Assembly: GCA_046290465.1 (NCBI GenBank)
Contig: JBKAGP010000001.1
Span: 4,800,001-4,864,000, forward strand
Direction of reading: 5' to 3'
Length of the DNA: 64,000 bases
Source: Planctomycetota bacterium
GTDB lineage: Bacteria > Planctomycetota > UBA1135 > UBA2386
Every line of letters starts with the position of its first letter. Positions within the stretch are counted from its first letter, which is position 1. The notes below the pieces were generated by a model. That model was not told the origin of the DNA, ran no database searches, and worked only from the letters and a program-made list of their open reading frames with translations. Below are positions 6,935-11,347 of the stretch, piece by piece. The translations under genes and the position numbers were made by a program.

Positions 6935-8008
6935 CTACTTCGCGGCGGCCGCCCGCACGAAGGCCTGCACGGCGCGGTCCATCGGCACGCCCTGCGCGAC
7001 CGGCCACGCCTTCTTCGGCGCCTTGCGGACCTGCTCCAGCCACTGCAGCTGTCGCGGCGACAGGTGGCTCCGCCAGTTGTCGCCGCGCATCGCCGCGTTG
7101 ACGCGCGTCGCCTGCGCCCTCGTCATCGGAACGTGACGCAGCGGGCTCTTGTAGAGGTAGTACTGCTGCTCCTTGTCGAGCCGCGCCAGCTCGCGTTCCT
7201 TCGTGTTCGCGTAGAGCCGGGCGCGGTCGCCGATGACCTTGCGCGCCTTGGCCAGCTGCGCGTCCGTGCTGGTCCACACGAACAGGTCGCACTGCTTGTT
7301 GCCGGCGACTCGCAGCAGGTCGTCGAACGAGATCTGCGCCCGGTCATAGGTGACGCGCACGCCTTCCTTGCGGCCGAACCACAGCGACTCGGTCGCCAGC
7401 ACGCCGTCGAGGAGGCCGAACTCGGCCTCGCCCTCCCAGAATCATGACATGCCGAAGATCGCCGTTTCGGTGCGCTTCATCGGCACGTCGCTGGTGGTCG
7501 CGAGCAGCGACAGCCACGCCGGCACGTCACGCTTGCTCGCCTGCAGCGCGCGCACCATCAGCTTGCCGATGCCGGCGACGGTCCACTCGCGAGTCAGGCC
7601 CTCGGTGAGATCCTTGCGGTCGGCGTCGACGACCCGCACGACCGGGTTGTTCCAGGTGCGTTCGCCGTAGGCGTCGAGGGTCGCACGGTCGCGATCGCCC
7701 TCGGTGTTGTTGTAGATGCACAGCGGCGTGAACAGCGTCTCCGCGGCTTCGACGACGAGGGGGTGACTCAGAACCTGAGCACCGAAGTCCTTGCACGTGC
7801 TTCAACCGGGCACTTCCTGGAACAGGATCAGCAGCGGCTTGCCGGTCGCCTTGGCCGTGAGCCTGGCGGTCGGTTCCGAGCGGTTCCAGCGGACCTCGCC
7901 GAGCTCGCCGGGCTGGTCCTGTTGCTGGCACGGCACGGGGGTGGCGAGGGCGAACAGGGCGGCGGCACCGAGGCCGCCGAGCCGACGCGGAAGGTCTGGT
8001 CGCGACAT
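6935..8008 (-). CDS. Secreted thioredoxin-like (VPGUxxC) / MsrA-like fusion selenoprotein with two selenocysteines (U69, U189)
   Basis: ORF-track fragments 7802-8008, 7442-7639 and 6935-7402 share one frame interrupted only by TGA at 7802-7804 (LFQEVPG-U-STC) and 7442-7444 (IFGMS-U-FWEGE); a hairpin follows each UGA. Confidence 0.85.
7412..7429 (-). promoter_or_regulatory. Putative SECIS hairpin for the second UGA
   Basis: GAGGCCG-AGUU-CGGCCUC begins 12 nt downstream of UGA 7442-7444. Confidence 0.65.
7762..7783 (-). promoter_or_regulatory. Putative SECIS hairpin for the first UGA
   Basis: GGUG-CUCAG-GUU-CUGAG-U-CACC (bulged U, G in loop) begins 18 nt downstream of UGA 7802-7804; local codons GGT GCT GTT AGT break the GC3 bias. 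Confidence 0.72.
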
Positions 8009-8062: not shown

Positions 8063-9037
8063 TCAGTTCTGGACGCGCGCGCGGTCGCCGCGGCTGCCCG
8101 GCACCTTGGCCAGTGCCTTGCGCCACGCGTCGTCGTCGAGGATCAAGCCTGCGGTCGCCAGCGGGTCGGTGTCGACGCCGCGCCTGCCACGAACGCAGGT
8201 GACGCGACGGTCGGTGACGCCGAGGCCGGTGCGCGGGTCGATGACATGGGCGTAGCGCACTCCGTCGATCTCGACGAAGCGGTAGACATCGCCGGAGACC
8301 GACGCGGCGCCGTTGGCGATCACGAACGTCAGCGGCTTGCGTTGCTGGTCGGCGCCGCCGACCAGCAGGTCCGGCACCGTCACCCGCCAGCCCTGCTCGC
8401 CCGGCGGCGCGTCGCCGAACACCATGTCGCCGCCGGCGCGGTAGCGGCAGCGCGCCACGCCGTGGGCCTTCAGCAGCGCGACCACCTCGTCGCCGATCAT
8501 GCCCTTGGCGAGCCCGCCGAGGTCGAGCCACATGCCCTGCTTCTTCAGCTGCGCCGTCGACGCCTTGCCGTCGAGCACCAGCGCCCGGACGTCGACGTAG
8601 CGGCGTGCGTTGGCGAGCCGGTGCTTCGGCGGCAGCTTGCCGACCTTGCGCGACGAGCGCCACATCTGCACGAACGGCTTCGCGGTGACGTCGAACGCGC
8701 CGTCGGTGATCGCGTGCATCGCGACCGCGCGTTCGAGTGCGGCGAACAGCTCGTCCGGCACGGCGACCGCCTGCGGGGATTCGGCGGCGATCCGGTTGAG
8801 CGGGCTCGGCGGCTCGAACGCGTAGTCGTTCATCATCGCCGACAGCTCGGCGACCCGCGCGAACGCCGCCTGCGCCGCTGCGTCGGCGGTCTCGGCGTCG
8901 TCGGCGTAGAGGGTCAGCTCGACCGGGATGTTGCCGAAGTGCACCTTCTGGTAGGTGAACTTGCGCGGCTGCTGTGGCGCCGCCGCCAGCGCCTGCGTCG
9001 CCAGCAGCAGCGCGGCCGCGGCGCGCGCGCGGCTCAC
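8063..9037 (-). CDS. apbE: FAD:protein FMN transferase (ApbE family)
   Basis: TDGAFDVT, LDLGGLAKG, AGGD, SVSGDVYRF, YAHVIDPRTG, DPLATA; GTG start overlaps the upstream TGA. Confidence 0.92.
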   Translation of the reverse strand: MSRARAAAALLLATQALAAAPQQPRKFTYQKVHFGNIPVELTLYADDAETADAAAQAAFARVAELSAMMNDYAFEPPSPLNRIAAESPQAVAVPDELFAALERAVAMHAITDGAFDVTAKPFVQMWRSSRKVGKLPPKHRLANARRYVDVRALVLDGKASTAQLKKQGMWLDLGGLAKGMIGDEVVALLKAHGVARCRYRAGGDMVFGDAPPGEQGWRVTVPDLLVGGADQQRKPLTFVIANGAASVSGDVYRFVEIDGVRYAHVIDPRTGLGVTDRRVTCVRGRRGVDTDPLATAGLILDDDAWRKALAKVPGSRGDRARVQN

Positions 9038-10737
9038 TTCGCCCCGGGGATGTTGACCGGGTCGCAGACCAGGCGGAAGCCCATGTCGAAGCGGTCGCGA
9101 TACCACCACAGGCTCTTGGGCAGGTTGGGGTAGGTCTCGTTCCAGATGTCCTGGCTCTCGGTCTCGCGCCAGTCCATCGACAGCTGGTCCTTGGTCACCA
9201 GGTACGAGCCGCCGCGGATGAACACCTCGTCGTCCATGACCCACTCGGCGACGTTGCCCCAGAAGTCGTGCAGGCCGAACTCGTTGGCCGGCTTCTTGCC
9301 GACCGGCATGGTCATCTTGGCGCCCCACTCGTCCTCGCGGCAGTTGCCGTCGAGCCACGCCACCGCGTGCGGATCCTTCGGCACGCCGCCGGTCGCCTCG
9401 GCGACGTAGCGCCATTCGGCGTCGGTCCACAGGCGGTAGGGGCGGCCGGTCAGTTCGCTGACGTGCTTGCAGAACGCGAGCGCGTTGCGGCGCGACACGC
9501 CGAGCACCGCGGTGCCCTCGAAGCCGTGGCCGCGCGAAGCGTCCTCGTAGCACGGCGTCGGGCGCAGCAGCTCCTCCTTGAGCTTGGCGGCGTAGGCCGG
9601 GTCCTTGAGGTCGGTGCAGTAGGACCACGCGTTGAACATGCGCCACGTGACCTCGGTGGTCTGCGCGTAGAACGGCGCGATGCCCTTGGCCGGGTCGCCC
9701 GGGATCAGCACCATCTCGAACGGCGCCTGGTAGCCGAGGTCGAGCACGTTCTCGTCGCCGCGCTCGTTCTGGTAGTCGACGTAGTCGGTGAAGCGCTCCG
9801 GCAGCTTCGACACGTCGACGCCACCCGCGGCCGCGGCGGGCCCCGCCGTCTTGACCGCCTGCAGCTCGCGCTGCAGCTCGGCCTGGCCGGATTCGAGCCG
9901 CTCGAGGCGCGCCGCCAGCGTCGTGACCTGCTCGCCGAGCACGCCGTTCCGGGCCTGCTGCGCGACGATCTGTCGGTTGAGCTCCGCGATCACGGTCAGC
10001 GGGTCCGGCGTCGCGTGGATGCGCACGTCGACCAGCACCTGGTCGTCGACCTCGGCCGGCGGTTCGAAGCCCTGGCGCTTGGCCACCGCGAACGCCGAAC
10101 GCGAGATCGGGAACGTCGCGTCGAGCTTCAGGCTCTGCTCGGTCACCTCCATGCGCGCGTAGATGGTCAGCTCCTGCTCGATGCCGTTCAGCTGCAGCTT
10201 GCAGGCGAGCGCGTGGGTCCAGCCATCGATCGCGCCGGCGAACTCGGCCGTGTCGTCGCCGCTGCGCGGTCGCGCCGCACGCGTCGTCAGCACGGCCGTC
10301 GGGTGCTCGGGCGCAAACCACTGGTTCTCGCGCACGGTGTTGATCATCGCGTTGGGCGCCGGGTGGTCACCGTGGCCGCGCATCGCCTGGACCTGCACGT
10401 GCAGTTCGCCGGCGCGCAGGCTGCGCGACTTCGGGTCGAGCAGGGCGCGGCCGTGCAGCTGCGTCCAGGCGCCGCCGTAGTCGTGGCGCGCGCCGGCGAG
10501 CACCTTGCCGCAGCGCCACAGCATCTGGGTGTTGCCGCCGGCGTCGAGCGACGTCAGCTCGAGCGTCACGTCGGCTTCGTTGGCGGTCACCCCCGCGACG
10601 TCCACGATCTCGGCCTTCGGTGCGGGATCGGTGCCTTCGAGCGGCTGGTTGAGCCAGGCCTGGTAGTAGGCGAAGCCGGCGACGCCGAGTGCGGTGATGG
10701 AGAGCAGGGTCGCAATCGCGACGAAAAACTTGGACAT
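9034..10737 (-). CDS. Membrane-anchored YceI-like + coiled-coil + formylglycine-generating-enzyme (FGE/SUMF1)-fold domain protein
   Basis: N-terminal TM; YceI-like WFAPEHPTAV..LQLNGIEQEL..FPISRSAF; TEVT, RLWTDAEW, PVGKKPANEFGLHDFWGNVAEW, RGGSY, GFRLV. Confidence 0.82.
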   Translation of the reverse strand: MSKFFVAIATLLSITALGVAGFAYYQAWLNQPLEGTDPAPKAEIVDVAGVTANEADVTLELTSLDAGGNTQMLWRCGKVLAGARHDYGGAWTQLHGRALLDPKSRSLRAGELHVQVQAMRGHGDHPAPNAMINTVRENQWFAPEHPTAVLTTRAARPRSGDDTAEFAGAIDGWTHALACKLQLNGIEQELTIYARMEVTEQSLKLDATFPISRSAFAVAKRQGFEPPAEVDDQVLVDVRIHATPDPLTVIAELNRQIVAQQARNGVLGEQVTTLAARLERLESGQAELQRELQAVKTAGPAAAAGGVDVSKLPERFTDYVDYQNERGDENVLDLGYQAPFEMVLIPGDPAKGIAPFYAQTTEVTWRMFNAWSYCTDLKDPAYAAKLKEELLRPTPCYEDASRGHGFEGTAVLGVSRRNALAFCKHVSELTGRPYRLWTDAEWRYVAEATGGVPKDPHAVAWLDGNCREDEWGAKMTMPVGKKPANEFGLHDFWGNVAEWVMDDEVFIRGGSYLVTKDQLSMDWRETESQDIWNETYPNLPKSLWWYRDRFDMGFRLVCDPVNIPGAK

Positions 10738-10939
10738 GCGGACGGTGGAGCGGGCGAACGGTGCAGAAGCGGCCCCGCAGCATAGCTGCGGTGGATCGAC
10801 GCTCCCAGGGTCGGTCGCGTCCGTCGGCACGTTCGCCAGCGATGTCGAGGATTCCTCGTGACGACGAGCCGTTCGTTCCGCCTTGCTCCGGTGTGGGCCC
10901 GGGCCTTCCGGGCCGTCCATTACCTGCACCTCGCTATCG

Positions 10940-11347
10940 ATGATCCACCGAACCACGTTCGCGCTCCTCGCCCTCCTGTGCCTTTCCGTGTCGGCGCTCG
11001 CGCACCGCCCCGCCGCGATTCCCTTGGCCCCGATCACGTCGGGAGTGCCGGCGTTGGGACCGGCCGGCTACGAACTGCAAGAGGAGGACGGTACGCCGAT
11101 CGGCGATCCTGGTCGCTACGTCGTCTGGGCGGTGCCGACCGCCATCCGTGGCGTGTATTCGCTGACCACCGTCTACATGCCCGAAGAAGGGCCTTATGTG
11201 ATCCTCTACAACGAGTCGGGTTTCGCGGTGAAGACCGCCACCGGCTACGACACGTCGACGTCGACGACGACCGGTACCCTCGAGCTGCAGAACGACGGTC
11301 GTTGGAAGGAGACGCTGTCCAGCGGCAACACGTCCTACTGGGGCTGA
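10940..11347 (+). CDS. Small secreted hypothetical protein
   Basis: Signal peptide MIHRTTFALLALLCLSVSALA; beta-rich mature part. Confidence 0.7.
   Translation: MIHRTTFALLALLCLSVSALAHRPAAIPLAPITSGVPALGPAGYELQEEDGTPIGDPGRYVVWAVPTAIRGVYSLTTVYMPEEGPYVILYNESGFAVKTATGYDTSTSTTTGTLELQNDGRWKETLSSGNTSYWG

Follow-up and report, generated by a model that had tools for sequence, protein, structure and literature searches.

The closest described relatives of the protein reported here are grouped in NCBIfam as NF041383, 'VPGUxxT family thioredoxin-like (seleno)protein, type 2'. Table 1 of the review PMC13188914 gives NF041383 with the motif VPGU and one selenocysteine (Sec, U); the review places MsrA in a separate entry, with the Sec-MsrA motif given as GUFWG/H, and carries an older family name, OS_HP5, citing its reference 60. 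The name OS_HP5 has 0 occurrences in the main text of PMC1976440, the source that the review cites. Here we analyse a gene on the minus strand of a 64,000-nucleotide (nt) stretch of a Planctomycetota bacterium genome (GCA_046290465.1, contig JBKAGP010000001.1, positions 4,800,001 to 4,864,000; hereafter the window), whose reading frame runs through two in-frame TGA codons, one in a thioredoxin-like and one in an MsrA-like domain. The protein is a new member of this already named family, and its second Sec, in the MsrA-like domain, goes beyond the single Sec of the published table, the only one that we found. A literature search for a two-Sec thioredoxin-MsrA fusion found none, and the review was the sole paper found that names the VPGUxxT family. 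On the comparative evidence below, we regard it as very highly probable that the gene encodes a genuine double selenoprotein of family NF041383.

Two further systems offer themselves for comparison. Neisseria PilB is a thioredoxin-like/MsrA/MsrB envelope repair protein that is recycled through DsbD. Like PilB, the window protein is a fusion of a thioredoxin-like, presumably recycling domain with an MsrA fold and is predicted to be exported, and the PilB MsrA domain (3bqe-3bqh) aligns with its C-terminal domain at Z 12.0 to 12.3 and a root-mean-square deviation (rmsd) of 1.7 to 1.8. Unlike PilB, it carries Sec in both active sites, a reduced MsrA core and a thioredoxin domain of the Thioredoxin_7/DsbD-gamma-like subtype, and it lacks MsrB: no Pfam family beyond Thioredoxin_7, PMSR and Thioredoxin_2 matched at E <= 1, so there is no MsrB (SelR) domain. 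The analogy with PilB drawn in the first-pass annotation of this DNA, a reading of the sequence made without database searches, therefore stands for the thioredoxin-like/MsrA-fold fusion but not for the MsrB part. The second system is the Sec-MsrA of Clostridium oremlandii (4lwj, 4lwk, 4u66), whose structure the C-terminal domain matches best, with the Sec before F-W and the Glu in common. Unlike canonical Sec-MsrA, the window protein has two deletions in the MsrA core, Trp/Phe and Cys in place of tyrosines, a thioredoxin fusion and a predicted export leader.

Family membership and Sec/Cys exchange at the two TGA codons

The gene (6935-8008, minus strand) is a single frame of 357 codons plus a TAG stop, and its only internal stops are two TGA codons (Table 1). 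Under genetic code table 11 the frame is split into 7802-8008 (68 amino acids [aa]), 7442-7639 (65 aa, GTG start) and 6935-7402 (155 aa, GTG start). The first-pass annotation had described three open reading frame (ORF) fragments in one minus-strand frame, divided by two TGA codons only, and the translation agrees with it exactly. Its further claim, that standard annotation would miss the gene, holds for plain ORF calling, which returns three pieces; NCBI, however, has an 'exception'-type model for the family. Read through with U as C, the protein matches NF041383 at 362.9 bits (cut-off 275, E 1.4e-108), with profile positions 1-287 of 287 aligned to residues 35-324, spanning both TGAs and both domains. 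Score, VPG-[U/C] motif and type-2 C-terminal region all agree with membership, and the family name 'VPGUxxT', which the first-pass annotation had put forward, thus turns out to exist as NF041383. More than 1,156 database clusters match the family at E <= 1e-10, and several of them carry the VPGUxxT type 2 name at NCBI. Type 1 (NF041382) has the N-terminal thioredoxin-like domain in common with the window protein and differs in the C-terminal part; it scores 116.8 bits over residues 26-162 against a cut-off of 350, which rules out membership of type 1.

Table 1. Features of the double-Sec gene (positions of the window; residues of the read-through protein)
Feature	Position	Strand	Basis
Whole coding sequence, with two in-frame TGA (predicted Sec) codons	6935..8008	-	Translation and NF041383 match, residues 35-324
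Predicted signal peptide, residues 1 to ~22 (RR, core GLGAAALFALA, possible cleavage after ALA)	7943..8008	-	By eye
Thioredoxin-like domain, residues 32-161 (Thioredoxin_7 / DsbD-gamma / DsbH-like)	7526..7915	-	PF13899 and structure match
TGA, predicted Sec69, opening the U-x-x-C redox motif (VPG-U-STC; context EVPG-U-STC, residues 65-72)	7802..7804	-	
Cys72 codon, second residue of the U-x-x-C redox pair	7793-7795	-	Cys in 30/30 loci
SECIS-like hairpin 1, GGUGCUCAG-GUU-CUGAGUCACC, 21-42 nt past the T of TGA69	7762..7783	-	Pair conservation
Reduced MsrA-fold domain ('mini-MsrA'), residues 175-329	7022..7486	-	Structure and profile matches
TGA, predicted Sec189, at the MsrA catalytic Cys position (M-S-U-F-W; context FGMS-U-FWEGE)	7442..7444	-	
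SECIS-like hairpin 2, GAGGCCG-AGUU-CGGCCUC, 15-32 nt past the T of TGA189	7412..7429	-	Pair conservation
Cys240 codon, aligned with the second active-site Tyr of canonical MsrA (QY; 'RQYMS')	7289..7291	-	Alignments
Conserved helical C-terminal part, residues ~287-357	6938..7150	-	Helices 297-309, 318-329 and 343-355 (model)

In 401 sampled genomes of the window's phylum, a six-frame search that tolerated stops detected the family in 42 (E <= 1e-30), and the best 30 loci of that search, the window's own included, form the alignment on which the following counts are based. The column of residue 69 (site 1) holds U in 24 loci and C in 6, and that of residue 189 (site 2) holds U in 17 and C in 13; combined as site 1/site 2, these are 17 U/U, 7 U/C, 6 C/C and 0 C/U forms. 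A further 80 named genome loci comprise 63 C/C and 17 U/C forms, so that site 2 is Cys and site 1 either Cys or Sec in 80/80; they were retrieved via Cys-coding patterns, a route by which U/U forms are undetectable. The best full-length database proteins have Cys at both sites (120/120). No residue other than Cys or Sec occurs at either site among the 30 phylum loci, the 80 named loci and the 120 database proteins, which settles the question, posed in the first-pass annotation, of whether homologues hold Cys or TGA at both positions. The frame is more than a chance opening because the NF041383 profile aligns unbroken across both TGAs and the same codons are TGA in 16 further genomes.

Each TGA is followed by a putative selenocysteine insertion sequence (SECIS) hairpin that Sec forms conserve and Cys forms do not. 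Among the 24 Sec forms, hairpin 1 is paired in 83.3% of 192 cells and has 15 cells in which both sides have changed, compared with 60% of pair cells in the 6 Cys forms; its apical loop opens with GU in 21 of the 24. In hairpin 2 the 17 Sec forms have 94.1% of 119 pair cells paired, including G-C to C-G or A-U changes at two pairs, against 43% in the 13 Cys forms, and its loop opens with or contains GU in 15 of the 17. A hairpin, GACUCCCG-GUU-CGGGAGUC, is also present in the genome's canonical Sec-MsrA gene; it begins 15 nt past the TGA of that gene, the offset of hairpin 2, and has the same kind of loop. The shared offset agrees either with descent of the Sec site from one ancestor or with convergent evolution of the same peptide.

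The genome of the window also holds the machinery for Sec insertion: selA (453.1 bits), selB (353.7), selD (352.1) and tRNA-Sec (72.8) all score above their cut-offs, so that the four genes selA, selB, selC and selD that the first-pass annotation had named as a check are present. Contigs from four sequencing runs of four studies differ from the window by 16 to 22 substitutions over 1201 nt, with 0 in either TGA and 0 indels, and both TGAs are thus kept in four independent runs, contrary to what sequencing errors would give. We read both TGAs as selenocysteine codons because of the Sec/Cys columns, the hairpins kept in Sec forms but not in Cys forms, the sel genes and the four runs. The proposal of Sec at both positions, made at first from the letters of the window alone, is in this way borne out by comparison across genomes.

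Several side observations belong to these sites. At +3 after U all 30 loci have Cys (U-x-x-C), and +2 is often Thr, so the name VPGUxxT is an ill fit for type 2. A few Cys forms (L074, L111; P0077, P0086, P0100) are monothiol variants without the second thioredoxin Cys, with motifs such as VPGCSTV, VPGCSTS and C-x-x-V, and keep the MsrA-site Cys. Three Sec forms with FG[RQ]GP[LI]S after the motif (L044, L045, L046) are without the common hairpin 1 and have other stem-loops nearer the TGA, possibly an alternative SECIS form serving this site. Four homologues (G022, G803, G786, G1146) have a single in-frame TAG or TAA within the match and could be broken genes or two adjoining frames. The selD gene has one in-frame TGA, is probably itself a selenoprotein gene, and adjoins selA directly (G000:C1:1309619-1311945, minus strand); selB and tRNA-Sec lie elsewhere in the genome.

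Domain architecture and a possible methionine sulfoxide cycle

An AlphaFold2 model built on the 30-row alignment has a predicted local distance difference test (pLDDT) score of 91.0 and a predicted template modelling (pTM) score of 0.86, with low confidence only at residues 1-30 (pLDDT 53-57). In thioredoxin and MsrA folds, the redox residues sit between a strand and the following helix, and in the model Sec69 and Sec189 each directly precede a helix that follows a strand. Pfam PF13899 (Thioredoxin_7) matches residues 46-129 at 30.3 bits, and a search of the PDB with residues 32-161 (VIA-align) returns 3f9u_A (Z 15.3, rmsd 2.5, 121 aligned), DsbH 2ju5 (Z 13.4) and DsbD-gamma 2fwe (Z 12.8). The first-pass annotation had called the N-terminal domain thioredoxin-like, in keeping with this fold match and with the U-x-x-C that opens its first helix. 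Residues N100, E116, N120, V123 and R125 of this domain are invariant.

For residues 175-329 the top structural match is the C. oremlandii Sec-MsrA 4lwk_A (Z 14.3, rmsd 3.5, 145 aligned, 23% identity; VIA-align), and other MsrAs, including the PilB MsrA domain, follow at Z 11.6 to 12.8 with rmsd 1.7 to 2.5 over ~100-110 residues. Predicted structure thus resolves the protein into the two expected domains, a thioredoxin fold (Z 15.3) and an MsrA fold (Z 14.3). The family profile finds MsrAs of the PDB at E 8.1e-11, and its alignment to the canonical Sec-MsrA of the window's genome by hhalign has a probability of 98.4 and E 5.9e-15. In that alignment U189, F/Y190 and W191 fall on the U-F-W of GUFW, with W191 present in 30/30 loci, and the invariant Glu215 (30/30) falls on the Glu of HAE. 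Beyond this core, the C-terminal part has the invariant residues P294, Q299, L316, P318 and Q320 (PMT..QA..N, LSP.Q), and the Clostridium MsrA, in its own C-terminal part, can be aligned with it as far as residue 329. Besides the window gene, the genome carries two canonical MsrA genes: the Sec-MsrA (FALG-U-FWGPD; G000:C1:3811941-3812348, plus strand; L132:1441-2000) and a Cys-type enzyme (C1:1198305-1198754).

Export of the protein and an electron supply by CcdA/DsbD are inferred from two observations. In 113 of the 119 family proteins with an initial M, a hydrophobic 10-residue window (Kyte-Doolittle [KD] >= 1.8) lies ahead of the conserved ELG motif, in agreement with the N-terminal signal or leader proposed at first, and the genome has one DsbD_TM/CcdA-type gene (67.3 bits). 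On this basis, a single exported polypeptide would be made in which SelB inserts both Sec residues at UGA codons, each of them followed immediately by a separate SECIS hairpin. Sec189 would attack a sulfoxide, for which methionine-S-sulfoxide of envelope proteins is the likeliest candidate. The selenenic acid so formed could be converted to a selenenylsulfide either by Cys240 or by the thioredoxin domain itself. The Sec69/Cys72 pair would then reduce the selenenylsulfide, and a membrane CcdA/DsbD-type electron transporter would re-reduce the thioredoxin domain. Cys240 is the candidate resolving Cys; it is Cys in 25 of the 30 loci, and 93 of 115 database proteins have a motif matching its region. 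Such a protein could plausibly repair methionine sulfoxide and recycle itself internally. For the favoured statement as a whole, an exported two-Sec thioredoxin/mini-MsrA enzyme with the proposed cycle, we put the probability at about 55%. Taken separately, an internal relay between the two domains seems to us moderately probable, and methionine sulfoxide as the substrate is an even bet.

Several observations weigh against this statement, some of them in the MsrA-like domain. Pfam PF01625 (PMSR) matches residues 182-212 only, over profile positions 1-31 of 153 and at 23.8 bits against a cut-off of 23.7, and the curated MsrA equivalog TIGR00401 falls short with 20 bits against 108.1. In the hhalign alignment, the mini-MsrA is without 13 and 10 residues of the canonical MsrA core. 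Both active-site tyrosines are replaced: that of the canonical 'GY' by W210 (Trp/Phe in most homologues) and that of 'QY' by Cys240. In canonical MsrA, the GY and QY tyrosines hold the sulfoxide oxygen. The description of the C-terminal domain as MsrA-like in the first-pass annotation is borne out by the fold, the Sec-F/Y-W motif and the Glu; the short PMSR match, the failed equivalog and the two lost tyrosines make the relationship a partial one. Concerning the Sec sites, single-sequence folding after the TGAs gives z of -0.42 to -0.79, which in DNA so rich in G+C does not improve on shuffled sequences, and the support for SECIS elements is comparative only, drawn across genomes. The strain-level substitutions, 10 synonymous and 14 non-synonymous, give no sign of strong constraint at that depth. 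Finally, when 2,456 ORFs around 110 loci (flanks of 1.5-3 kb) were clustered all-against-all, no cluster besides the gene itself and its antisense shadows was common to more than 6 loci.

The altered MsrA pocket leaves room for a different substrate. The same double selenoprotein could use its mini-MsrA on some other oxidised compound, whether a peroxide, a disulfide, a sulfenic or selenenic acid or a further sulfoxide or selenoxide, or it could serve as a redox sensor. The replacement of Tyr by Trp/Phe and by Cys, the two core deletions and the TIGR00401 score (20 vs 108.1 bits) all speak for such a change of function, as do the canonical MsrA genes, a Sec form and a Cys form, already present in the genome, and the thioredoxin-domain invariants N100, E116, N120, V123 and R125, which would be superfluous for a plain recycling thioredoxin. 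Against it, the catalytic Sec/Cys, the F/Y-W and the Glu show little or no variation, the top structural match is a true Sec-MsrA, and the indole NH of the Trp could take the place of the lost Tyr hydroxyl. On balance we consider an alternative substrate possible and on the whole unlikely.

Within the favoured cycle, a more particular chemistry can be imagined, in which Sec69 would attack the oxidised Sec189 to form a transient interdomain diselenide, resolved by Cys72, as a selenium-to-selenium relay in the rebuilt (Tyr to Cys) pocket. Such a relay would fit because no C/U form is found among 110 loci, Sec occurring at the MsrA site only where the thioredoxin site is also Sec. This absence is weak evidence since the tree described below needs only 1 to 2 events, and we hold the diselenide relay to be doubtful.

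In this clean and well-supported bacterial case, one protein has a selenocysteine in each of two distinct catalytic domains, with a separate predicted SECIS for each, and plain gene calling breaks the gene into fragments. For the NF041383 family, the MsrA-like second domain with its altered pocket provides a testable hypothesis of function, and more than 1,000 Cys-only relatives could be assayed without selenium machinery.

Stop codons or recoded codons

A pseudogene or an assembly error would make the TGAs true stops and leave short fragments at most, and the frame is indeed broken under table 11. Set against this, the same codons are TGA in 17 of 401 phylum genomes, whose proteins are conserved on both sides of the TGAs at 37-47% mutual identity, the matching residue is Cys in all other homologues, both TGAs are kept in the four independent runs, and the SECIS hairpins and the full Sec machinery are in the genome; we regard true stops as very improbable.

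Recoding of TGA, genome-wide or local, to a standard amino acid (Trp, Gly or Cys) would open the frame as any TGA-reading code does, with nothing specific in its favour, and is scarcely credible given that TGA also terminates genes (the upstream same-strand ORF stops with TGA at 8063-8065, and the next stop past the aligned region is TGA in 12 of the 30 homologues), that the aligned residue is always Cys, the signature of Sec, and that selA, selB, selD and tRNA-Sec are in the genome.

Distribution and gene neighbourhood

U/U forms were found in 17 of the 401 sampled genomes of the phylum, counted among the best 30 loci. Among three other phyla (301 genomes each, 903 in all), the family is present in 4, 7 and 4 genomes, with 0 two-TGA forms and a single TGA in one match. 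All U/C loci among the named records (17/17) belong to Planctomycetota. A quick maximum-likelihood tree places 16 of the 17 U/U forms on one side of a branch, with one (L047) apart, and implies 2 changes at site 2; one origin is also compatible. Given these sequences, we take the double-Sec form to be an old clade.

The gene converges with a GFO/IDH/MocA gene downstream. On the same strand, a gene with an ApbE (flavin transferase) domain ends 55 nt upstream of the selenoprotein start and is preceded by a YceI/FGE-sulfatase ORF (8063-11037, minus strand). No tblastn match to the ApbE, YceI/FGE-sulfatase or GFO/IDH/MocA neighbours was found in 29 homologous loci. In the clustering described above, long antisense ORFs that overlap the gene itself form clusters over 78 and 32 of the 110 loci. 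These are not genes but shadow frames, cast by a gene that is conserved and rich in G+C.

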